Counted from the first letter of the stretch, positions 40 to 14,760 are shown. The stretch is 15,646 bases of DNA from Bacteroidota bacterium (GCA_031411335.1 JANOAX010000001.1:1-15646); one strand, 5' to 3'. Translations and numbers: made by a program. Notes: generated by a model not told the origin, from the sequence alone.

Positions 40-831
40 TTACCAGCTACCCCCTGCTCCGCCGCCGCCGAAACTACCACCGCCGAATCCACCAAAACTT
101 CCACCGCCACCACTGCTGCCACCACCAAATCCACCGCTACCGGAATTAAAATTTCCCCAGCTTCCACTTTGTCGACCACGTGCAGCATTCAACAAAAGCC
201 AAGCTGCTAAAAATGTGATGCTATTCATCTTGGCATAACGTTGCACACTAAATATTTTAAACAAGAAAATAAATAACAATACAAGCAACACAAATAAAAT
301 AGAAGGAACTTTGCCCGCTCCTTTCTTTTTTCGGCTCGAAGTATCGTGATATTCTCCTTTTACAACATCAATAATTTTAGAGACGCCGGCATTAATTCCT
401 TCGTAATATCGTCCTTCTTTGAAAAAAGGTTTTATATCATTTTCAATAATTCTTCTGGATAATGCATCGGTAAGGGCTCCTTCCAATCCGTAACCTGTAG
501 CAATATAAATTTTTCGATCTTGCAAAACCACAAGCATCAACGCTCCGTTATTTTTTCCTTTATTTCCAATGCCCCACTTTTCGCCGAGTTCAAATGCGTA
601 ACTTTCTACAGGGTATCCATCAACGGTATTGATAATAACAACTGCAATTTGTGTAGAAGTAGTGTCGTTAAAACCTAATAACTTTTGCTCGAGCGCTTCA
701 GTTTCTTTCGGTGTTAATGTATTGGTAAAATCATTGACCAATCTCGGAGGATTAGGCGTAGGCGGAAATTCTACAGCGGCTTGTACAGCGCTAAATAAAA
801 AGAAACAAACTATCAATAAATAATTTTTCAC
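40..831 (-). CDS. TPM-domain membrane protein (YgcG-like) with signal peptide, TPM domain, one TM helix and a Gly-rich C-terminal tail
   Basis: 263-aa ORF. Signal peptide MKNYLLIVCFFLFSAVQA. TPM-like core (LVNDFTNTL..TSTQIAVVIINTV..ALMLVVLQDRKIYIATGYGLEG). TM helix VPSILFVLLVLLFIFLF. Tail GSGGFGGGSSGGGGSFGGFGGGSFGGGG. The GTG start overlaps the upstream stop (GTGA, 828-831). Confidence 0.8.
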   Translation of the reverse strand: MKNYLLIVCFFLFSAVQAAVEFPPTPNPPRLVNDFTNTLTPKETEALEQKLLGFNDTTSTQIAVVIINTVDGYPVESYAFELGEKWGIGNKGKNNGALMLVVLQDRKIYIATGYGLEGALTDALSRRIIENDIKPFFKEGRYYEGINAGVSKIIDVVKGEYHDTSSRKKKGAGKVPSILFVLLVLLFIFLFKIFSVQRYAKMNSITFLAAWLLLNAARGRQSGSWGNFNSGSGGFGGGSSGGGGSFGGFGGGSFGGGGAGGSW

Positions 832-1274
832 GACTCCCCTCCTCCAAAAACAATATCGTTTGGCAACTCGTTTACATCATCTTTATGAAATGGAAAGTGA
901 GAACTCAACTGCTCACCAACTTTCCTTACTGCATATTCAATTCCATCCACAAAAAGATTGCTTTTAAAAAAAACACCCATCTCCGTAGTTATTTCTTCCC
1001 AGAAATTATTTCCAACTTTTTGATGTATTCCAGCATCACCAATGATGCAAAACTTGCGATCATCCACAGCCAAATATATCAACACACCGCTTCTCAATTC
1101 TGTTGCATTCATTTCAAGTTGCGCAAAAATAAATGCGGCTCTATCGAGTACATTATCCTTACATTCATCCTCCATAAAAACACGTATCTCGCCTGAAGTT
1201 TCTAACTCTGCGTTAGTAACGGCTAGGCGGATACGTGCTCTATCCTCTTCTTGGAATAATGCTTGCGCTTTCAT
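828..1274 (-). CDS. TPM-domain protein (TLP18.3/Psb32/MOLO-1 family) with no signal peptide
   Basis: 148-aa ORF with the TPM pattern (IRLAVTNAELETSGEIRVFM...GVLIYLAVDDRKFCIIGDAGI). The ATG overlaps the LemA stop (ATGA, 1271-1274). It sits in the conserved LemA-TPM-TPM context. Confidence 0.7.
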   Translation of the reverse strand: MKAQALFQEEDRARIRLAVTNAELETSGEIRVFMEDECKDNVLDRAAFIFAQLEMNATELRSGVLIYLAVDDRKFCIIGDAGIHQKVGNNFWEEITTEMGVFFKSNLFVDGIEYAVRKVGEQLSSHFPFHKDDVNELPNDIVFGGGES

Positions 1275-1873
1275 TTGTCGAATGCAGCTCCTACATCAGG
1301 TGCTTTGTTGGCTCCTTTGTCGGCTTCAAAAAATGGCTTCGGTGAGAATCCATACATGCCTGCAATGGTTACCTGAGGAAACTTACGCACATAGCTATTA
1401 AATAACTGTACCGCTTCGTTAAATTTTTGACGCTCCACGGCGATACGATTTTCTGTTCCTTCCAATTGCGATTGCAACTCTAAGAAATTTTGATTCGCCT
1501 TCAACTGTGGATATTGTTCAACCACCACCATCAATCGACCTAAAGCAGATCCCAACTGACCTTGCGCTTCTTGGAACTTTGTCATTTGTTCGGCAGTTAA
1601 ATTTTTAGGATCAATCTTCACTTGAGTTGCATTAGCTCTTGCTTCGATGACAGCAGTTAAAGTCGACTTCTCAAAATCGGCAGCTTCTTTTACGGTGCTC
1701 ACCAAATTCGGAATGAGATCAAGTCGGCGCTGATATACATTTTCAACTTGAGACCAAGCCGTTTGAACTTGAACATCACGTTCTACTAAATTATTATAAG
1801 TGCCTACGAAAAATCGGTAGAGGATAAATACGATGACGAGAATGACTCCTACTACAATTAGTGTTTTTTTCAT
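1271..1873 (-). CDS. lemA: LemA family protein (N-terminal TM anchor)
   Basis: 200-aa ORF. TM helix TLIVVGVILVIVFILY is followed by the typical LemA core (YNNLV..DVQVQTAWSQVENVYQRRLDLIPNLV..V...FEK.TL..V..AR). Confidence 0.88.
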   Translation of the reverse strand: MKKTLIVVGVILVIVFILYRFFVGTYNNLVERDVQVQTAWSQVENVYQRRLDLIPNLVSTVKEAADFEKSTLTAVIEARANATQVKIDPKNLTAEQMTKFQEAQGQLGSALGRLMVVVEQYPQLKANQNFLELQSQLEGTENRIAVERQKFNEAVQLFNSYVRKFPQVTIAGMYGFSPKPFFEADKGANKAPDVGAAFDK

Positions 1874-3837: not shown

Positions 3838-3845
3838 TACTTTTG
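3838..3845 (+). promoter_or_regulatory. Candidate Bacteroidota -7 promoter box TACTTTTG (consensus TAnnTTTG) for the riboswitch transcript
   Basis: Exact match to TAnnTTTG a few nt upstream of where the cobalamin aptamer begins. Position is coherent, but this is only a motif match. Confidence 0.35.
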
Positions 3846-3849
3846 CCCT

Positions 3850-4025
3850 TAGTGATGGTTTCCTGCTTAATAACAGGAATGAAAAGGGAATGCCGTGCAA
3901 TCCGGCAACAGTCCCCGCTGCTGTAAACAGTTTCGCATGCAAATGCACATCAAAACGCAACCACTGTTCATCAAGGAATGGGAAGGAGTTTTGATTAATC
4001 TGTGAGTCAGAAGACCTGCCAACAT
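3850..4025 (+). promoter_or_regulatory. Cobalamin (B12) riboswitch, Rfam RF00174 type
   Basis: Conserved blocks occur in the right order. AAGGGAA at 3884-3890. Hairpin GCCGTGCAATCCGGC at 3892-3906. GTCCCCGCTGCTGTAA at 3911-3926. CCACTG at 3961-3966. GGGAAGG at 3980-3986. B12 box AGTCAGAAGACCTGCC at 4005-4020. Boundaries are approximate to about 10 nt. Confidence 0.85.
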
Positions 4026-4143
4026 TATTGCCATGGTTGAACCTTCGGAGGAAAGGATGATGAGCGTTACAGTATGGAATTTATTTTCCTTTACTCTATG
4101 GAATATTCAATCGTGGTTTCTTGTATGCATTAATTTATAAACC

Positions 4144-5211
4144 ATGATAAAAAAAATCGCACTCTCCATTTGCTCACTGAGCATCCTTGTATTCACTTCT
4201 TGCGAGAAGGATAAACTAGAAGAAAACACTCCAGCTCCTAACAATTTAAACGGAGTATTTGTAGTAAATGAAGGCGCCTTTCTCGCAGGCAATGCGTCTA
4301 TCTCATTCTTCTCTTCTGACTCTGTTTACCACAACAGTGATCTCTATCAATCGGTAAATGGATTTCCGGTGGGTGATTTATTGCAATCGATGAGCATCTA
4401 TAATGGAAAAGCCTATCTCTGCGTAAACAATTCACAAAAAGTAGAAGTGGTATCGATGGTCGACTTTAAAAAGACGGCCTCAATCTATGGAATTAATAGT
4501 CCACGCTATTTCACAGCACAAAGTAACTATGGATACATTAGCGATTGGAATTCCAATCAAGTATTCAAAATCAATTTGAATTCAAACACCATTGTAGATA
4601 GTGTTTTGTGTGGATTGGGTCCCGAGGAAATGTTGATTGCCAATAACCAACTCTTCGTTTGCAACAGCGGAGGATTTGTAGATGATAGCAGTGTGACTGT
4701 AGTTAATCTAAGCACTTTTAATGTCTCCACCACATTAACAACAGGCGTAAATCCTTCTTCTATTCGCAAAGACAATATTGGAAACGTTTGGGTGCTTTGC
4801 CGAGGCAGTTTAGGCGCCGACTTTACACCAACGCCTGATGATCCAGGTGGGAAATTGATGCGAATTAATCCAGCTTCATTAGCTACCGATTGGTTTGCCG
4901 ATTTCAGCTTCGACGAACATCCGCTCAAACTCAACACTAACGCCGACGGCACTACGCTATATTTCCTATTCGGCAATAGTGCCTATACTGGAACGGTTTA
5001 TAAAATGGATGCAAGCAGTACAGTAATCCCTAGTACGCCGTATATTGATCGTGAGTTTTACGCGTTGGGCATTCATCCAACTGATGGAAGTATCTACGGA
5101 GGGAAATCGAGCTTTAGCAGTAATTCGCATATGCTGCATTATACCAATGCCGGGGTGTTGATTGATTCATCAACTGTAGGAATTGGTCCGAGTAGTTTTG
5201 TCTTCAATTAG
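4144..5211 (+). CDS. Surface lipoprotein, YncE/DUF5074-like beta-propeller; candidate BtuG-like B12-binding protein
   Basis: 355-aa ORF directly downstream of the B12 riboswitch. Lipobox LVFTSC followed by EKDKLEE. The N-terminal pattern GVFVVNEGAFLAGNASISFF...YLCVNNSQKVEVVSMVDFK, with repeated short beta-strand/Gly-Asn segments, resembles propeller lipoproteins of Bacteroidota B12 loci. The B12-binding role is inferred from context. Confidence 0.55.
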   Translation: MIKKIALSICSLSILVFTSCEKDKLEENTPAPNNLNGVFVVNEGAFLAGNASISFFSSDSVYHNSDLYQSVNGFPVGDLLQSMSIYNGKAYLCVNNSQKVEVVSMVDFKKTASIYGINSPRYFTAQSNYGYISDWNSNQVFKINLNSNTIVDSVLCGLGPEEMLIANNQLFVCNSGGFVDDSSVTVVNLSTFNVSTTLTTGVNPSSIRKDNIGNVWVLCRGSLGADFTPTPDDPGGKLMRINPASLATDWFADFSFDEHPLKLNTNADGTTLYFLFGNSAYTGTVYKMDASSTVIPSTPYIDREFYALGIHPTDGSIYGGKSSFSSNSHMLHYTNAGVLIDSSTVGIGPSSFVFN

Positions 5212-5457: not shown

Positions 5458-6009
5458 CTATTTATTAAGAATAAGTTCATTCGATAAAACTACATTACTC
5501 TTATGATTCGCACGATCTCGGATATAAAATTCGAAGCGGCCGATGTTATCTAATAAAATTAAAGCACTCGTATAATCCATTCGATATGTAACTGTGGCTT
5601 CAATGCTCTTGCTATTTCCAGCCGGTTCGATGTATTGCATGCGCTGATTGAATTTTACTTGCACACTATCAAAATAAACAAGTGTATCACAAGTAGGAGT
5701 TACTTCGACTACTTGCAACCATAAATTTTTCTTTCTGAAATTCGCTCCGTCTTTTACTTCATAAGCCAAATACAAATTAGCATTATCAGCTCCGCAACTA
5801 TTATCAAATTCATTATCGGCTAAACCAATATCTCCATCACCATCTTTAATGGTAAAAATAAATTCAACAGCTGTATCTTTTCCCGTGGTGCCGATGTAAT
5901 TAACAAAGCGCTCAAATTTAATTTCGGGAATAGGACTAAACGACTCCTCTTTTCCACAAGAAGCTAAGAATGCCACTACGGCGAATAAAAGTAAAATTCT
6001 AGATTTCAT
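5458..6009 (-). CDS. Small lipoprotein with a DGDGD motif; paralog of the 9448-9936 ORF
   Basis: 183-aa ORF. Lipobox FLASC followed by GKEE. It shares blocks with the 9448-9936 product (F.I.Y/K.D.DGD.G, then F..Y..DRA.NKSN). It lies 39 nt downstream of the M16 peptidase gene on the same strand. Confidence 0.7.
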   Translation of the reverse strand: MKSRILLLFAVVAFLASCGKEESFSPIPEIKFERFVNYIGTTGKDTAVEFIFTIKDGDGDIGLADNEFDNSCGADNANLYLAYEVKDGANFRKKNLWLQVVEVTPTCDTLVYFDSVQVKFNQRMQYIEPAGNSKSIEATVTYRMDYTSALILLDNIGRFEFYIRDRANHKSNVVLSNELILNK

Positions 6010-9304: not shown

Positions 9305-9335
9305 GTTACTTTCTTTTCACGTAAAAGAAAGTAAC
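9305..9335. repeat. Perfect 13-bp inverted repeat with a 5-nt loop (GTTACTTTCTTTT cacgt AAAAGAAAGTAAC)
   Basis: Read directly. It lies in the 464-nt convergent intergenic region and has no flanking T-tract on either strand. Confidence 0.75.
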
Positions 9336-9447: not shown

Positions 9448-9936
9448 TTAAGGTTCCTTAATTGTAATTGCCCCACTCGTCACTGTATTACTTTTATTCC
9501 CCGCTCGATCTTTTACATAAACAGAAAAGGTGGCGGACTGTTGAGCTAGGCTGGTGTCGGTGCGGGCAACGGAATTTAGTACGACTTGCAAAGTGCCTTC
9601 AATGGCAATGGCAGAACCTGTAGGAGCTAATTGTTGAATGCGATAATCGTAAATAATGCCGATGCGATTGTCGGTGATGAATAAATTTTTAACGTTCGGA
9701 TTATTTTCTCCTAAGTCGCCGTCGTTGTCGCGATACTTGATATTGAAAACGAGTGAATCTTGAAACTCAACAACCATCTGCGGCGTAAGTGAAAGCAATT
9801 CTATGGAAGGTACTTTATTTGCAAAAGGATCATCGTCTTTTTGGCAGCCGGAGCTCCCTAAAATTCCAATGCCTATGAGCAACAACAAAATTGAAGGTCG
9901 CTTGAATATACTATTAAGTGAATGGATATTCATCAT
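9448..9936 (-). CDS. Small lipoprotein with a DNDGD motif; last gene of the five-gene cassette and paralog of 5458-6009
   Basis: 162-aa ORF. Lipobox GSSGC followed by QKDDD. Shared blocks LVFNIKYRDNDGDLG and FSVYVKDRAGNKSNTV match the 183-aa paralog. Confidence 0.7.
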   Translation of the reverse strand: MMNIHSLNSIFKRPSILLLLIGIGILGSSGCQKDDDPFANKVPSIELLSLTPQMVVEFQDSLVFNIKYRDNDGDLGENNPNVKNLFITDNRIGIIYDYRIQQLAPTGSAIAIEGTLQVVLNSVARTDTSLAQQSATFSVYVKDRAGNKSNTVTSGAITIKEP

Positions 9937-9942
9937 GAATTT

Positions 9943-10917
9943 CTATTGGACAATAAATGCAAAATACGTTTTATAAAAATCGGGCGATTGATTTTTGGGC
10001 AATTCACTTGGCAAAGCTTGAAATCCATCGTTCATATATACTCTGAAATAAATGGTAGTTCCTACACTCCACTGACTCGTATTTATAATGGCTTGCCAAT
10101 ACGGAAATGGAATAGGTGTATTCCAAAATGCATTTATCGTTTGTGCACCCACAAAATTATTAGGATCTAATGACCATTTAATTTTATGCTCGGTAAAATC
10201 GATGGGATCAGTAGCCGTAGTTCCATCTGCGGTATCTAAAGCCACTAAAACAAGATACATGGATTTATTCGCAGGAGCATAGAAAGGCATATAACCAATT
10301 CCATTTTGTCGAACTGTATCTAATCGAGTGTATAAAGAATCGGTTGCAATAAATCCAACAATATTAGGAGGAAGATTTGGTTTTTGCGGTAATACTCCAT
10401 CAACATCGGGACACCCATCCTGAATCCACTTTCTGATATTACCCATATCCGCACTCCCTAATCGAACACCATTTGACGGCATGTAATCGGAAGTGCTCGT
10501 TGTTAATCGCTCAATCAAGAATGAGGTTGCTTCATTATTTGGAATGACACGGTAATTAAAAAAATTAATGGAGTCGAGTGTCTTTTTATTTACACCCATA
10601 TAAATCAAGGTTGAAAAACTACTTTGCACCGTTCTGAAATCGGGCTCAAACGTACCATCATGACAACCGGGATTTGCACATTTAGGAAAGAAAATATTTT
10701 TATGGAGACCTGTGATGGAAGCAGGATCCGGAACTGAATCTTGATTGCCACCGTTATTATAATTCACATTGTCGTAAGGATTATCTGGTGTCTCTTCTTT
10801 GGTACAAGATGAAATCATCATCACAAATAAAAAAACCATCCACCCAACCATCACAAAAACAAAATATTGTTTTTGGAATTTGAATGCTGATGTGATTAGG
10901 TCAAGTATTTTTTTCAT
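9943..10917 (-). CDS. Lipoprotein with an N-terminal PSCyt-like (planctomycete cytochrome-c-like) module carrying C-x4-CH; C-terminal half unknown
   Basis: The longest ORF reaches 10956 but overlaps the upstream gene by 28 nt. The ATG at 10917 (MKKILDL...MMISSC TKEE) is more likely. The module reads IFFPKCANPGCHDG...RVIPNNEATSFLIERL...YMPSNGVRLGSADMGNIRKWIQDGCP. This parallels the PSCyt1 pattern C..CH...vvpG.pe.S.L..r....MP....L...e...l..WI..GA. Confidence 0.6.
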   Translation of the reverse strand: MKKILDLITSAFKFQKQYFVFVMVGWMVFLFVMMISSCTKEETPDNPYDNVNYNNGGNQDSVPDPASITGLHKNIFFPKCANPGCHDGTFEPDFRTVQSSFSTLIYMGVNKKTLDSINFFNYRVIPNNEATSFLIERLTTSTSDYMPSNGVRLGSADMGNIRKWIQDGCPDVDGVLPQKPNLPPNIVGFIATDSLYTRLDTVRQNGIGYMPFYAPANKSMYLVLVALDTADGTTATDPIDFTEHKIKWSLDPNNFVGAQTINAFWNTPIPFPYWQAIINTSQWSVGTTIYFRVYMNDGFQALPSELPKNQSPDFYKTYFAFIVQ

Positions 10918-10928
10918 TCCTAGATGGT

Positions 10929-12266
10929 TTAGAAGAATGCTTGTGCTAAGTCGCACTGATTAAAATTCTTTATACCCGCACTCGCCGGGATACTATTATC
11001 GAAACCTAAAATATTAGCAATGGTGGGTACAATCTCCGTACTTTCTCCACTCACACTATTCACCACGAGTCCTTGCTTAACTACAGTTGGCGGACCCACC
11101 ACCAAACAAAATATTTCTCGTGCCATTTGATCACCACTCACCCCATCGGAAGGAGAAGTATGATCTAAAGCCAAACGACCGTATGCATCGATGGAAGTAT
11201 TCGGACTGAAATTTCTTCCATGCTCGGGTGCAATGACCATCACTGTATCGTTAGCCATACCAGGTGTACTTTGAATCACGTTCCACAAATGCGCAGCTGC
11301 CCAATCGGCTTTACGTAAATTGTTGGCGTACGAACTAAAATCAAAATGACCTATATCTACATCTTGCATATTCACCGTGAGCAATTCAGGTTTGAATCGC
11401 TGAATAATTTCTTCGGCAAACATCACATTGAACATATCGTTATTCATGGATGCGCCAACACCCCAAGGATTGACATATTGCCCCGATTGTGCCTTGGCAT
11501 ATAAATCGCTAATAAACTGTTGCACCTGTGCTGCTTCTGCTGGAGAATTCGTAATTCCTGCAGATGGATTCGTATAACTCTGATCAAAGTTTCCATTCGC
11601 AAAATTTCGGATACTTGCAAATGCAGCTTGCTCATTCGTGGTGAAAGACGCAGGATTTCCTAATGCATTAAACCCATCTTGAGAAATTAAAAAATTAGGA
11701 GAGATGAAATTCGCTCCATAACCAGCACCGTAGTTGGGATCGCTCGAATAATTCAATGCAGGATAAGGTCCGAGTGTATTCGCTACCCACCAACAATTCA
11801 ATGCCGTTTGTTGCGGACTATTATGCTTTCGATAATATTCAAAGATAGTAGGATTACGAGGAGACTCACGAATATTTAAATCGGTGCTTACGTATTGACC
11901 TGTCACGGCAACTGTGTGTCCGTTGTAATGTCCTGTAGGACCTTCCTTATAACTAAACTGACGAAACAAAGTACCATAATTTTGTAATGGTTGAGAAAGT
12001 GGTCCAGGAGGAAGAAAATCCATCGCAGGTAAAATATCATTTGAGATTGCACTTCCACCACTCAACATATTCGGCATTAAATTGCCGTCGTTAAACTGCA
12101 CCGATTCCAGATTACGCACACCACCTGCAAAAAGCAAGAATACCACATGATTCACTTTACGCAAACCACTCGCTGCAAACAGTCGACCACCCGGCAATAA
12201 ATACGGAGCTGCCATGGCTCCTGCAGCGGTAAGTCCTACATTCCTTATAAAACGTCGTCTATCCAT
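10929..12266 (-). CDS. Tat-exported DUF1501-like protein (alkaline phosphatase/sulfatase superfamily)
   Basis: 445-aa ORF. Twin-arginine signal MDRRRFIRNVGLTAAGAMAAP. Blocks NHVVFLLFAGGVRNLES, TVMVIAPEHGRNF and LDHTS parallel the DUF1501 blocks (vvv.l.GG.d.l / sEFGR / tDHg). Confidence 0.6.
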   Translation of the reverse strand: MDRRRFIRNVGLTAAGAMAAPYLLPGGRLFAASGLRKVNHVVFLLFAGGVRNLESVQFNDGNLMPNMLSGGSAISNDILPAMDFLPPGPLSQPLQNYGTLFRQFSYKEGPTGHYNGHTVAVTGQYVSTDLNIRESPRNPTIFEYYRKHNSPQQTALNCWWVANTLGPYPALNYSSDPNYGAGYGANFISPNFLISQDGFNALGNPASFTTNEQAAFASIRNFANGNFDQSYTNPSAGITNSPAEAAQVQQFISDLYAKAQSGQYVNPWGVGASMNNDMFNVMFAEEIIQRFKPELLTVNMQDVDIGHFDFSSYANNLRKADWAAAHLWNVIQSTPGMANDTVMVIAPEHGRNFSPNTSIDAYGRLALDHTSPSDGVSGDQMAREIFCLVVGPPTVVKQGLVVNSVSGESTEIVPTIANILGFDNSIPASAGIKNFNQCDLAQAFF

Positions 12267-12279
12267 TTCCTTTTATCAA

Positions 12280-12768
12280 TTAATAATAACGGTACTCATT
12301 GGAAGTCATCAATGCATACCAAATTACTTTGCTCGTCATGGATGCATTCAACCTGATTTGTTCTTTCAAATAATATTTCTCGAATGCATTGGCATCGCGA
12401 TTAAATAATTTTTTGTATGTATTATTAATATACAAAACGGTGTCGCCAGCAACATTTGTTTGCGCTGGAATTTGCACTCCTGATTTTGAAAGGAAATTTA
12501 ACAAGATGCGATCTTCAATCATTTTCTTATCTCCGAAAGCAACGTACACTGTATTCAACTTACTCAATTCTTGCTGTGGAATTTGTGTTCCGAAAAGATC
12601 GGCCCAAGCGATGGTTAAAAATTCGACGGTACTCTTGGCATTCGACTTTATAGTTCCCGGTGATTGCACCGCTACTGGATTTACCTCATACAAATAATCA
12701 ACTTCCTTCTCACAGGAAGTGAATACGAGAGAACAGATAACGAATACAAGGGTGTTTATTCTTTTCAT
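12280..12768 (-). CDS. Lipoprotein with two DUF4214-like helical repeats
   Basis: 162-aa ORF. Lipobox LVFTSC followed by EKE. Repeats are VEFLTIAWADLFGTQIPQQEL and LYINNTYKKLFNRDANAFEKYYL, and the protein ends in SNEYRYY. Confidence 0.55.
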   Translation of the reverse strand: MKRINTLVFVICSLVFTSCEKEVDYLYEVNPVAVQSPGTIKSNAKSTVEFLTIAWADLFGTQIPQQELSKLNTVYVAFGDKKMIEDRILLNFLSKSGVQIPAQTNVAGDTVLYINNTYKKLFNRDANAFEKYYLKEQIRLNASMTSKVIWYALMTSNEYRYY

Positions 12769-12777
12769 TTGTATCTC

Positions 12778-13650
12778 TTATTTAATTCCAACAAACTCAT
12801 CGGTCGCCAATACATCTTTTTGGACTGATTCAAAATTCAAGGTGTTTTTATATTTCAATGCGGCCTCACTCATCTCAATTGAATTAGGAGCACGCAATAA
12901 ATAATCATTAAATATACGAATGACAGATCCTTCAAAATAATCATTGGAATTAAAAAAGATGTTGAGGTAATCTTCTTTTGAGGCACCTGCTTGCAAAAAC
13001 AAAACGGCATTATTTCCGCCAATCATTCCAACTCCGCTTAACAGTTCGGAAAATGTGGGGTTCCTATACAGAAAATGTTGAAATGAAGAAAGAACAAAAT
13101 TATCGGCCCCCATATTAATTTGATCATAAAAATAATTATTTAACATATACGATTGCAATTGTCGAATTGAAATGGTACCAGCCACGTAATCATAGGAAGC
13201 ATTGTATAAAGAATCTAATCGATCTTTTTCCAACTGCAGCGCAGGCCATACCGTGATATAAGTAGAATCATTTAGGAAAAAATCGAAAATGGCCATTTGA
13301 GTAATCACATCCGATGAATCGGTGCTTCCCAACAATTGAATTCTCCACTTTTCTACTTGACGCCATTTATAATCGGATAAAGAAAAAACAGAATTCAAAA
13401 AATTATATCGACTCGGTACATCTAGCCCATGTGTTTTTAAACTGTCTACTGCTTTCTGGAATTCTAATACACTGGGCTCTCTACCTAACACGAGGATATA
13501 CGACTTGTTTACATAATCTTCATAAACATTCGATTCAATCGTAGTGTCAGGAGGCGCTATATTGCCAGTGATCGTTTCCAGCTCCGTCTTGGTGCAGGAA
13601 TTCAATAAGAAAACAGCAACAAGAAACACTCCTATTTTCATGCAATTCAT
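12778..13650 (-). CDS. Lipoprotein with three DUF4214-like helical repeats; first gene of the cassette
   Basis: 290-aa ORF. The start is ATG 13650 or, more canonically, ATG 13641 (MKIGVFLVAVFLLNSC TKTE). Repeats are YVNKSYILVLGREPSVLEF, FVLSSFQHFLYRNPTFSEL and VIRIFNDYLLRAPNSIEMSEAA...VLATDEF. Confidence 0.55.
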   Translation of the reverse strand: MNCMKIGVFLVAVFLLNSCTKTELETITGNIAPPDTTIESNVYEDYVNKSYILVLGREPSVLEFQKAVDSLKTHGLDVPSRYNFLNSVFSLSDYKWRQVEKWRIQLLGSTDSSDVITQMAIFDFFLNDSTYITVWPALQLEKDRLDSLYNASYDYVAGTISIRQLQSYMLNNYFYDQINMGADNFVLSSFQHFLYRNPTFSELLSGVGMIGGNNAVLFLQAGASKEDYLNIFFNSNDYFEGSVIRIFNDYLLRAPNSIEMSEAALKYKNTLNFESVQKDVLATDEFVGIK

Positions 13651-13747
13651 ATCCCAAATTTAACGATTGACTTTATTAAACGCAAAAGTCCCTTAAAAAC
13701 TTATGCACGATCAAAGATTAAGAGAATATTTATCCAGCAAAGTTTAA

Positions 13748-14454: not shown

Positions 14455-14523
14455 ATACCAACATCTTAGTCGATTAAGTTTTCCGGAACGTATTAATTAT
14501 TCTCCGAATTGAAACTCAATTTT

Positions 14524-14600
14524 AACACTAGAGGGCACTAAAGGTCACTAAAGATCACAAAAGTCATTCTCAAGTGCATCTCGTGACCTCTAGTGCCCTC
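14524..14600. repeat. Short form of the palindromic 10-bp-repeat element, same family as 5223-5452
   Basis: Sequence is AACACTA GAGGGCACTA AAGGTCACTA AAGATCACAA AAGTCATTCT CAAGTGCATC TCGTGACCTC TAGTGCCCTC. Outer arms GAGGGCACTAAAGGTCAC and GTGACCTCTAGTGCCCTC are inverted. Both arms align with the arms of the long copy, without its ~150-bp interior. Confidence 0.75.
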
Positions 14601-14649
14601 GTATGTTTGTTTTCTTAAATAAAATCAAGAATTTTAATGTTCTTAAATA

Positions 14650-14760
14650 GGTGAGGAGTGGGAGACGATTAGTGCCTAAACAACCGCAAAGGTATGTTGA
14701 ACTAGAGTTATATCCCCACTCCTTTTACTCTTTAGAGCCTGAACAGAATCTAAAGCTATT
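14650..14760 (+). ncRNA. Candidate IS110 bridge (guide) RNA region in the left end
   Basis: A 9-bp perfect stem AGGAGTGGG/CCCACTCCT (14654-14662/14715-14723) encloses a 52-nt loop. A second 7-bp stem-loop is CTTTAGA/TCTAAAG (14730-14736/14749-14755). The loop contains TAGTGCC (14670-14676), GTATGTT (14692-14698) and ACTAGAG (14701-14707), which match the flanking junction. Extent and transcription are not established. Confidence 0.35.

Follow-up and report, generated by a model that had tools for sequence, protein, structure and literature searches.

Results

Organisation and conservation of the locus

Within the window (the 15,646-nucleotide stretch of Bacteroidota bacterium GCA_031411335.1, JANOAX010000001.1:1-15646, that was analysed; all coordinates are counted from its first letter), positions 9448-13650 hold five minus-strand open reading frames, A to E, encoding proteins of 290, 162, 445, 324 and 162 amino acids. 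From A to E the intergenic gaps are 9, 13, 11 and 6 nt; a recount of the ORFs returned exactly the spacing given in the original prediction, and orthologues uphold its use of the ATG at 10917 as the start of D, an upstream GTG at 10956 having no such support. The features of the locus are as follows:

9305..9335, no strand assigned: candidate terminator, a perfect 13-bp inverted repeat with a 5-nt loop, 113 nt past the stop codon of E
9448..9936, minus strand: gene E, 162-aa lipoprotein, predicted small beta-sandwich
9943..10917, minus strand: gene D, 324-aa lipoprotein (alignment, AF2 and hhalign)
10477-10482, minus strand: putative distal ligand of D, M146-P147
10660..10680, minus strand: putative haem-attachment motif (CX4CH) of D, C80-A-N-P-G-C85-H86
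10929..12266, minus strand: gene C, predicted 445-aa Tat-signal enzyme of the alkaline-phosphatase superfamily (AF2, Foldseek and hhalign)
11225-11214, within gene C: E348-H349-G-R351
12280..12768, minus strand: gene B, 162-aa lipoprotein with two DUF4214-type units (profile matches)
12778..13650, minus strand: gene A, 290-aa lipoprotein (DUF4214 profile matches)
13655..13662, minus strand: TAAATTTG, tentative Bacteroidota-type -7 promoter box, just upstream of gene A

Looking across 80 related Bacteroidota loci drawn from species-representative genomes, we see the order A-B-C-D-E in 80/80 wherever the contig extends far enough, which answers the check on synteny proposed with the prediction and places the module in at least 80 uncultivated species, all of them represented by MAGs. 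A was recovered in 74 of these loci, B in 76, C in 80, D in 75 and E in 74, with median gaps of 2.5, 14, 0 and -4 nt; the order persists where identity falls to 54% for C, the best conserved of the five genes (54-98% across distant lineages), and to 32% for D. Such conservation is far beyond chance. Each locus examined has one copy, amongst neighbours of a housekeeping type that vary from locus to locus (the most conserved flanking gene is found in only 22/68), marking the cassette as a self-contained module. The same survey of the flanks found no Pho-regulon, sulfur-regulon, phosphate-transport or TonB/SusCD uptake genes consistently linked, nor any linked lipid or LPS genes, and a regex search of the 80 fetched loci found no true DUF1501 genes.

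There are no terminator-like sites in any gap within the cassette. The inverted repeat at 9305..9335 sits between the cassette and a convergent gene. Occurrences of the -7 motif over the window are at chance level (20 observed, 19.4 expected), such that only the position of TAAATTTG is suggestive; a scan for sigma-70 promoters is uninformative for a Bacteroidota host.

In direct scans of the window proteins against Pfam and NCBIfam, C, D and E gave no significant match, and A and B only sub-threshold matches to DUF4214 (12.9 and 15.7 bits); the assignments described below emerge only at the level of the family or profile.

Gene C: predicted fold and key residues

The N-terminus of C reads MDRRRFIRNVGLTAAGAMAAP, a twin-arginine motif followed by a hydrophobic stretch. 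Its opening residues, MDRRRFIRN, include an RR-x-F motif at positions 3-6 that is conserved at R3 in 77/79, R4 in 72/79 and F6 in 77/79 orthologues, a pattern that fits that of Tat substrates, as had been proposed; the TIGR01409 and Pfam TAT_signal models both score below threshold. C has no lipid anchor, no T9SS domain and no N-terminal multi-pass membrane domain.

Our AF2 model of C (pLDDT 80, pTM 0.82) returned 438 PDB matches in Foldseek at E <= 0.001, with probability 1.0. These comprise sulfatases, NPP and PMH, at 10-14% identity (TM-scores of 0.4-0.5 for sulfatases and NPP), and LtaS-type and related proteins, 4uop and 3lxq amongst them; the model has the alpha/beta core fold of the alkaline-phosphatase superfamily (Pfam clan CL0088). 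At the sequence level, profiles of C and D found no significant match amongst PDB sequences, and a single relative of C found none at all. At 90% identity the family of C comprises over 1,200 clusters, the majority lacking any Pfam assignment; some of its members are entered in databases as 'alkaline phosphatase family protein' or 'Type I phosphodiesterase'.

Besides the twin-arginine motif, the key residues of C are A47-G48-G49, T111/H113/H117, D304/H307, E348-H349-G-R351 and D368-H369, invariant in 77-79 of the 79 orthologues. The position of the canonical metal-binding Asp of strand 1 is taken by the invariant A47-G48-G49, and the putative nucleophile could be either T111 or H113. In profile alignments E348-H349 pairs with the metal-binding DH of sulfatases and NPP; set directly against an NPP sequence, the profile of C recovers only the DHG segment.

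The relationship of C to DUF1501 is a distant one. No match to DUF1501 (PF07394; gathering threshold 27 bits) or Phosphodiest (PF01663; 23 bits) was found for the window protein at E <= 1. Amongst 50 relatives, 14 match DUF1501, the best at 19.7 bits (E 5e-4), never reaching the threshold; 11 match PF01663 at E <= 1 over part of the profile (positions 37-221 of 342), and in seven of ten selected relatives the score, at 24-29 bits, lies just above the cutoff. We also aligned C to a reference set of 33 real database proteins, all labelled PF07394. With hhalign the N-terminal half gave a probability of 71.6% (E 3.5e-5, 227 columns) and the C-terminal half 4.9% (E 0.008, 124 columns), both weak statistics, but the motifs pair as expected: AGG with GGG and T111..H117..TG with T..H..TG in the first half; D-x-x-H with WDTH, EHGR with EFGR and DH with DH in the second. 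We thus take C to be a distant, full-length and collinear relative of DUF1501, judged by its aligned motifs, rather than a member; of the original description of C as DUF1501-like and alkaline-phosphatase-superfamily-like, the fold stands, and the DUF1501 label holds only in this looser sense, beneath the Pfam cutoff.

Gene D: a cytochrome-like lipoprotein

Downstream of its anchor, D has a conserved P-x-N-P-Y-D tether leading to two domains, one resembling cytochrome c (about residues 65-172) and the other an Ig-like beta-sandwich (about 180-324). The AF2 model (pLDDT 82.5) has the topology helix, CX4CH, Met loop, C-terminal helix for the first of these domains; 72/72 orthologues keep C80, C85, H86, M146 and P147 unchanged, and an invariant 11-residue loop, H-D-G-T-F-E-P-D-F-R-T, follows the His of the CX4CH motif. 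Aligned by hhalign over 95 columns with the corresponding region of WD40 proteins encoded in DUF1501 clusters, the domain reaches a probability of 96.6% (E 6.7e-10); the reversed control gave E 0.5, and such controls ranged overall from 0.24 to 0.58. Against the combined profile the probability is 88% (E 3e-6). The same CX4CH spacing is present in the N-terminal domain of 7/8 genuine PSCyt2/PSD1 partner proteins. These alignments indicate homology between the N-terminal domain of D and the PSCyt1-type, cytochrome-c-like domain found in DUF1501 clusters, bearing out the proposal of a PSCyt-like module of about 100 residues.

Pfam misses this module: PSCyt1 (PF07635) matches 0/53 members of the D family, nor does it match the isolated domain, and the family gives faint matches to Cytochrome_CBB3 and cytochrome c6. 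Even the domain used as reference, which comes from a genuine DUF1501 cluster, scores below the PSCyt1 threshold (18.4 versus 22 bits), and the Pfam PSCyt models likewise miss the CX4CH domains in genuine partners. A search of representative sequences with the D profile yielded no bridge to known domains, the best 150 matches all being full-length orthologues. Rather than attaching haem, the two Cys residues could form a disulfide or a metal site.

Foldseek with the whole model gave only weak, generic Ig-like matches for the C-terminal half, which is a generic Ig-like sandwich; this half had been left unplaced by the original prediction.

Genes A, B and E

A and B are, by their profile matches, helical lipoproteins of the DUF4214 type, as first suggested. 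DUF4214 (PF13946) is matched by 40/41 members of the A family (best E 2e-9, several above the 23.2-bit cutoff) and 35/42 of the B family (best E 6e-6), and one unit is common to both proteins (hhalign probability 90%, E 1.8e-6). At least three DUF4214/PBS-linker-type helical units occur in A (approximately at residues 43-71, 177-213 and 241-270), and its anchor is followed by the conserved motif N-x-A-P-P-D-x-T-I. Matches to PSD1 in 13/41 members of the A family are limited to positions 215-244 of the 244 in the profile, a short unit resembling DUF4214; with only the last 30 positions spanned, we reject A as the carrier of a real DUF1553 domain. Against eight real partner proteins, A weakly matches the start of DUF1549 (E 6.6e-4) and the end of DUF1553 (E 1.3e-3; reversed control 0.046), and B does no better than the reversed control. 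PSCyt2 (DUF1549) matches none of the five cassette families, and Pfam scans of the window copies and families found no DUF1800 match for A or B at E <= 1.

In E, the DxDGD motif singled out by the prediction forms part of an invariant block, Y-x-D-x-D-G-D-x-G (nt 9709-9735), with a further block D-R-A-G-N-x-S-N. E and D resemble each other only in their signal peptide and lipobox. We also compared E with the PPC accessory protein of PVC four-gene clusters, and a correspondence between the two found no support (E 0.16).

Lipoprotein anchors and export signals

The Cys at the end of the signal peptide is aligned in 73/74 orthologues of A, 75/76 of B, 72/75 of D and 73/73 of E, consistent with the lipoboxes proposed for all four and with their assignment as putative bacterial lipoproteins. 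In Bacteroidota, surface lipoproteins are exported by way of a C-X-K-(D/E)2-X signal (PMC5080379), which is matched by the window copies of E (C-Q-K-D-D-D) and D (CTKEET); strict matches occur in 36/73 orthologues of E, 30/72 of D, 14/73 of A and 1/75 of B, and Lys at +3 in 58-70 of about 73 sequences. D and E could thus lie on the cell surface while C is periplasmic, an arrangement that would argue against a stable complex.

Comparison with known systems

Modules combining DUF1501 with PSCyt1/PSCyt2(DUF1549)/PSD1(DUF1553) are found in Planctomycetes, Verrucomicrobia and Lentisphaerae (Kamneva et al. 2012, PMC3542564; He et al. 2017, PMC5615132). DUF1501+PSCyt modules are conserved, Tat- and cytochrome-associated and of unknown function (PMC3542564), and DUF1501, PSCyt, DUF1549 and DUF1553 genes, numerous in planctomycete and verrucomicrobial genomes, have had no function assigned since their first description (PMC3542564, PMC5615132). 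As in these PVC modules, the cassette sets a Tat-signal protein of predicted alkaline-phosphatase fold beside one with a PSCyt-type domain, together with extra beta-sandwich or Ig-type accessory proteins and DUF4214-like 'hhGRxPxxxE' helical units. In contrast to them, C falls outside Pfam DUF1501, and DUF1549 and DUF1553 domains proper are absent; the PVC partner is one protein of 700-900 aa, whereas in the cassette its functions would be spread over four small lipoproteins. DUF1501-containing proteins are also numerous in PVC genomes (PMC3542564), whilst the cassette occurs once per locus examined, in Bacteroidota.

Other relatives share part of this arrangement. The NPP family (PF01663) and type I sulfatases have in common with C the fold and the D-x-x-H and (D/E)-H-G metal-ligand motifs, but C lacks the C/S-x-P-x-R motif of sulfatases, the T-F-P-N-H motif of NPP and the first metal Asp (here A-G-G), and differs again in its Tat signal and dedicated cytochrome-like partner. 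D resembles class I c-type cytochromes in its N-terminal helix, Cys...Cys-His, Met-Pro loop and C-terminal helix, and departs from them in its spacing (CX4CH, not CXXCH), lipid anchor, Ig-like fusion and 11-residue loop after the His. DUF1501 and DUF1800 are paired in Proteobacteria, Bacteroidota and Actinobacteria, the former a Tat-exported enzyme and the latter an all-helical partner; we know of no cytochrome-like partner in these pairs. A resemblance of DUF1800 proteins to phycobilisome linkers has been reported (PMC12981691). The cassette likewise has a putatively Tat-exported enzyme with a helical partner, the PBS-linker/DUF4214-type unit being that of A and B, which gave no DUF1800 match in the Pfam scans and are lipoproteins split over two genes.

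In keeping with the view that the cassette matches no described system, we found no characterised counterpart of it in the literature, nor any functional characterisation of DUF1501, DUF1549, DUF1553, DUF1800, DUF4214 or PSCyt.

Discussion

We propose, at a probability of roughly 55%, that the cassette encodes an enzyme–cytochrome complex tethered by lipoproteins, equivalent in Bacteroidota to the DUF1501–PSCyt module of PVC bacteria, whose functions would here be split across several lipoproteins. The five genes would form one operon, its product assembling at the envelope. C would be the catalytic subunit, a metalloenzyme folded and probably metal-loaded in the cytoplasm prior to export through Tat; it is predicted to keep the C-terminal metal ligands of the superfamily (D304, H307, E348-H349 and D368-H369) and a Thr/His-rich nucleophile loop (T111, H113 and H117) and, like DUF1501, to do without the first metal-binding Asp. 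D, as a lipid-anchored PSCyt1-type protein probably carrying one haem and fused to its Ig-like domain, may dock on C and supply or remove electrons, or put its haem site to some other use in catalysis. A and B may serve as helical scaffolds or adaptors, a role that the DUF4214-like edge units of DUF1549/DUF1553, and DUF1800, may share, with E a beta-sandwich lipoprotein of a putative Ca-binding type. C would most likely cleave or transfer a group of the phospho- or sulfo-ester type on a substrate in the envelope or outside the cell. As for the hydrolytic or scavenging role guessed at in the original prediction, the invariance of the cytochrome-like site hints at something beyond hydrolysis alone. 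Against this proposal stand the weak similarity of C to DUF1501 (hhalign probabilities of 72% and 5%), the marginal placement by Pfam of some C relatives in Phosphodiest instead, the surface-export signal in about half of the D and E orthologues and the lack of any significant relation between B and the PVC partner proteins.

A simpler account, and the economical guess of the original prediction, is a nutrient-scavenging operon in which C is an NPP/PafA-like phosphatase or phosphodiesterase, the four lipoproteins are substrate-binding or anchoring accessories and the Cys-Cys-His of D is structural. PhoD and PhoX are both Tat-exported, NPPs are found amongst the structural matches of C, 7/10 of its tested relatives edge past the Phosphodiest cutoff, and some database names are of the phosphatase or phosphodiesterase type. 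We nevertheless consider it unlikely, with the first metal-binding Asp replaced by an invariant A-G-G, no Pho-regulon, phosphate-transport or TonB/SusCD genes consistently alongside, a degree of conservation in C that is unusual for a scavenging enzyme, and a domain in D that is homologous along its whole length to a cytochrome-type domain, its putative haem ligands invariant.

Alternatively, by analogy with the LtaS/EptA/OpgB-type transferases, which share the alkaline-phosphatase fold, C might transfer or remove a phospho-substituent (phosphoethanolamine or phosphoglycerol, for example) on lipid, LPS or a surface glycan, the lipoproteins positioning it at the outer membrane. High conservation, a single cassette per locus, housekeeping-type neighbours, the structural matches to 4uop and 3lxq and the invariant Thr of the nucleophile loop are all consistent with this; but the known transferases have an N-terminal multi-pass membrane domain that C lacks, lipid or LPS genes are not linked, and the dedicated cytochrome-like partner is left unexplained, making such a role decidedly improbable. 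That the five ORFs are adjacent by chance, or not all real genes, as the want of significant Pfam or NCBIfam matches for any window protein alone might imply, is refuted by the synteny data and has a negligible probability: all five persist as full-length ORFs in an unchanged order wherever the contig is long enough, amid flanks that differ, and each protein has hundreds to more than 1000 database homologues.

The cassette extends the DUF1501/PSCyt-type pairing into Bacteroidota in a compact form made up of a Tat-signal alkaline-phosphatase-fold enzyme, a PSCyt-type domain and DUF4214-type units. It also exposes gaps in current domain libraries, namely the family of C, and the CX4CH cytochrome-like domain shared by D and the N-termini of genuine PSCyt2/PSD1 proteins. 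With the cytochrome-like, helical and beta-sandwich modules present as separate small lipoproteins, the parts should be easier to express, to assay for haem and metal, and to reconstitute. A bolder suggestion, offered tentatively and in our view doubtful, is that DUF1501-type alkaline-phosphatase-fold proteins, C included, are not plain hydrolases but redox-linked metalloenzymes with a dedicated PSCyt-type (CX4CH/CXXCH) c-type cytochrome, of which the cassette is the minimal separable form; redox-linked electron exchange with a cytochrome is, to our knowledge, a chemistry without precedent in the alkaline-phosphatase superfamily. If true, the cassette would be well suited to reconstitution of such a system, and the redox link could explain the large expansions of DUF1501/PSCyt genes in Planctomycetes and Verrucomicrobia.

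Organisation and conservation of the cassette

Working along the minus strand from 13650 to 9448, we find five closely spaced open reading frames, encoding four lipoproteins (A, B, D and E) and a Tat-signal protein (C):

12778–13650, minus strand: gene A, ORF, 290 aa
12280–12768, minus strand: gene B, ORF, 162 aa
10929–12266, minus strand: gene C, ORF, 445 aa
9943–10917, minus strand: gene D, ORF, 324 aa
9448–9936, minus strand: gene E, ORF, 162 aa

The spacings originally read for A/B, B/C, C/D and D/E (9, 13, 11 and 6 nt) are reproduced, and the ATG at 10917 chosen as the start of D is backed by orthologues. A scan of the window places no terminator-like site in any gap inside the cassette; the E stop codon is followed, 113 nt further on, by a perfect 13-bp hairpin, and a Bacteroidota-type −7 box sits just 5′ of A, such motifs occurring at chance count within the window. 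Upstream, TM2 and DUF2752 genes flank the cassette; the product of the downstream neighbour, encoded on the other strand, has a T9SS C-terminal sorting domain.

A search of one genome per species yielded 207 relatives of C, and the analysis used the best 80 loci; all 80 are from uncultivated Bacteroidota MAGs, with wastewater, soil, groundwater and lakes as sources. Using the window proteins as tblastn queries, the order and orientation A-B-C-D-E are identical in all 80 (A present in 74, B in 76, C in 80, D in 75 and E in 74, with absences only at contig ends), so that the synteny on which the original prediction hung is indeed conserved in Bacteroidota. Colinearity persists where C is as little as 54% identical and A, B and D as little as 32–35%; C is by far the most constrained member. 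The TM2 and DUF2752 flanks are retained in only 12–14 close relatives, and the commonest flanking gene, from clustering of all flanking ORFs, occurs at 22 of 68 loci; median gaps between the cassette genes are 2.5, 14, 0 and −4 nt. Invariant order, varying flanks and tiny gaps therefore define A–E as a discrete, conserved, operon-like module, and we are confident that it works as one functional unit. Several cassette-bearing MAGs (L002, L013 and L015) have database records titled ‘Bifidobacterium’; their sequences are clearly Bacteroidota-like and the titles probably wrong.

Elsewhere in the window, a LemA gene followed by two TPM-domain genes (40–1873, minus strand), a common membrane-associated trio, is unrelated to the cassette. 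A cobalamin riboswitch (3839–4037, plus strand; Rfam RF00174, 109 bits, E 5e-27) immediately precedes a DUF5074 gene (4144–5211, plus strand), which probably encodes a B12-regulated surface or uptake protein. At the far end, an IS110/IS621-family recombinase gene (~14848–15646, plus strand; matching PDB 8wt6, the IS621 transposase, at E 6e-23 and 9t56 at E 2e-23) runs past the window edge; the ~390-nt non-coding stretch 5′ of it (14455–14847) carries an imperfect inverted repeat, GGGCACTAGAGGTCAC...GTGACCTTTAGTGCCCTCTAGTG, and could hold an element end or a bridge-RNA-like transcript.

C, a predicted alkaline-phosphatase-fold protein

C itself has no Pfam match at E ≤ 1, and in NCBIfam only a sub-threshold Tat-signal match. 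Its homologues form more than 1,200 clusters, mostly without a Pfam label, a few being named ‘alkaline phosphatase family protein’. Scanned singly against Pfam, 50 relatives touch DUF1501 (PF07394; 14), Phosphodiest (11), Sulfatase (3) and Metalloenzyme (2), all families of the alkaline-phosphatase (AP) clan; the best DUF1501 score is 19.7 bits against a cutoff of 27, and the Phosphodiest cutoff is narrowly exceeded by seven of ten selected relatives. The AlphaFold model (pLDDT 80, pTM 0.82) matches sulfatases, NPPs, phosphonate monoester hydrolases and LtaS-type proteins with a Foldseek probability of 1.0, at 10–14% identity and TM-scores of 0.4–0.5.

For profile–profile comparison, 120 PF07394-labelled database proteins were fetched with a composed bait sequence, and 33 of these aligned with the bait left out. 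The match between the C-terminal halves is weak (E 0.008), pairing D304-x-x-H307 of C with W-D-T-H, E348-H-G-R with E-F-G-R and D368-H with D-H. Once the C-terminal region is taken out, the alignment covers 227 columns of the N-terminal halves (probability 71.6%, E 3.5e-5): RR pairs with RR, A-G-G-V-R with G-G-G-P-S, and the nucleophile loop G-P-T111-G-H-Y-N-G-H117...T-G with S-V-T-S-P-D-G-x-H...T-G. Candidates for the nucleophile are T111 and H113. The paired residues are invariant in 77–79 of 79 orthologues (72–77 for R3, R4 and F6 of the Tat motif), upholding the twin-arginine signal first proposed. The C-terminal metal-ligand set is intact; the superfamily's first metal-binding Asp is missing, as it is in DUF1501.

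We conclude that C is an AP-fold protein with a Tat-targeting motif that belongs to none of the current Pfam families, and probably a remote relative of DUF1501, collinear with it from end to end. The original label ‘DUF1501-like’ thus survives as to fold and probably as to distant homology, and fails as to the family proper, whose Pfam cutoff is not reached.

The region of signal-peptide cleavage is normally variable. In C, residues 21–36 (window 12166–12204), running from the Tat hydrophobic stretch to strand 1, are near-invariant (P-Y-x-L-P-x-G-R-L-F-A-A-x-G-x-R), which could mean either that the Tat signal stays on as an anchor or that the segment itself has a separate role.

D and the DUF1501 neighbourhoods

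Homologues of D fall into more than 450 clusters in a 90%-identity collection, and an exhaustive search returns 1,231 representative clusters (50% identity) at E < 0.001; the matches listed are all about 300–330 aa, without annotation. Invariant features are the lipobox Cys, a tether (P-x-N-P-Y-D), the motif C80-A-x-P-G-C85-H86-D-G-T-F-E-P-D-F-R-T, Y-M146-P147, a helix end (W...G-x-P) and, in the C-terminal half, D-T-A-D-G and N-D-G. The model (pLDDT 82.5) predicts a helical N-terminal domain followed by a beta-sandwich, the former with the element order of class I cytochrome c (helix, Cys...Cys-His, Met loop, C-terminal helix); the latter, the half that the first reading could not place, is by Foldseek generically Ig-like only.

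As reference, ten real DUF1501 neighbourhoods were fetched. Eight have a full-length PSCyt2/PSD1 (DUF1549/DUF1553) protein near the DUF1501 gene, and in seven this protein is encoded directly upstream of it; in a ninth (L084) the upstream gene is contig-truncated, with no Pfam record. Three of these also contain WD40 and PPC genes, members of the four-gene type (Kamneva et al., PMC3542564), the WD40 partner carrying a cytochrome-like domain weakly seen by Pfam as PSCyt1. Seven of the eight PSCyt2/PSD1 proteins (L081, 1430–4150; L083, 2375–4990; L086–L090) begin with a domain of ~110 aa (C-N-x-G-x-C-H-G...L-L-L-K-P...V-P-H-G-G-G...W-x-x-G-A-P) with the CX4CH spacing of D. None of the Pfam models picks it up in the segments from L081 and L083; it seems to be a CX4CH relative of PSCyt1 that Pfam does not yet model.

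Pfam finds PSCyt domains in none of 53 D family members. By profile comparison, the N-terminal domain of D matches the WD40-partner domain over 95 columns (probability 96.6%, E 6.7e-10), the CX4CH domains with the motif in register (E 0.0014) and a combined profile of both (probability 88%, E 3e-6); reversed-sequence controls give E 0.24–0.58. Judged by these matches, the N-terminal module of D is a PSCyt1-type, cytochrome-c-like domain, so that the PSCyt-like module of the original prediction holds at a level Pfam misses. Haem binding by D seems marginally the better bet.

Lipoproteins A, B and E

DUF4214-like repeats had been proposed for A and B, and 40 of 41 A orthologues (best E 2e-9) and 35 of 42 B orthologues match DUF4214; ten A orthologues also match the phycobilisome-linker family, and one unit is common to A and B (probability 90%). 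A real DUF1553 domain in A can be ruled out, because the 13 ‘PSD1’ matches of its orthologues cover only the last 30 profile positions, an h-h-G-R-x-P-x-x-x-E unit of DUF4214 type. Compared with eight real partner proteins, A aligns to the first DUF1549 unit (E 6.6e-4) and last DUF1553 unit (E 1.3e-3; reversed control 0.046), suggestive only of kinship with these edge units; B gives nothing significant against the PVC partners.

E belongs to no Pfam family, with faint beta-sandwich DUF matches only; the predicted DxDGD motif is present as an invariant Y-x-D-x-D-G-D-x-G block, alongside D-R-A-G-N-x-S-N. A paralogue, a 183-aa lipoprotein (5458–6009, minus strand; BLASTP E 3e-9) sharing DGDGD and R-D-R-A-x-x-K-S-N, recurs ~3.7 kb downstream of the cassette in 13 related loci, and an M16 peptidase gene lies on that side in 14.

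The predicted lipoboxes stand, the anchor Cys being kept in A, B, D and E, with Lys at +3 strongly conserved. Strict matches to the Bacteroidota surface-export signal defined by experiment, C-X-K-(D/E)2-X (PMC5080379), occur in 36 of 73 E, 30 of 72 D, 14 of 73 A and 1 of 75 B orthologues, so D and E may be surface-exposed.

A possible counterpart of the PVC module

A literature search found no characterised locus matching the cassette, as the original prediction held, and no later functional work on the closest described system, the DUF1501 plus PSCyt/PSD module of PVC bacteria. The overall logic is common to both; the cassette stands apart by an enzyme that Pfam DUF1501 does not include, by the absence of DUF1549 and DUF1553 domains, by partner functions split over four small lipoproteins, and by its occurrence in Bacteroidota. 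We put at roughly 60% the probability that the cassette corresponds, in evolution and in function, to the PVC module. The main rival, a plain phosphate-scavenging phosphoesterase operon, appears improbable: C lacks the first metal-binding Asp and is highly conserved, no Pho or uptake genes are linked to the cassette, and D has an invariant site of cytochrome type.

In the mechanism that we propose, the five products would assemble at a membrane face of the envelope, with C as catalyst, acting on a phospho- or sulfo-ester-type group or running whatever reaction DUF1501 proteins run; any particular substrate class is doubtful. D would supply the putative haem site, either to pass electrons or to handle a ligand, and E would be a Ca-binding adaptor. 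A and B would be scaffolds, a role that we would also give to units of DUF4214 type in DUF1549, DUF1553 and DUF1800, the last of which is reported to resemble phycobilisome linkers (PMC12981691).

The cassette would represent a small form, with separable parts, of a system that has long gone unexplained; it is known from uncultivated genomes alone, and work on it has brought to light two unmodelled domain families.
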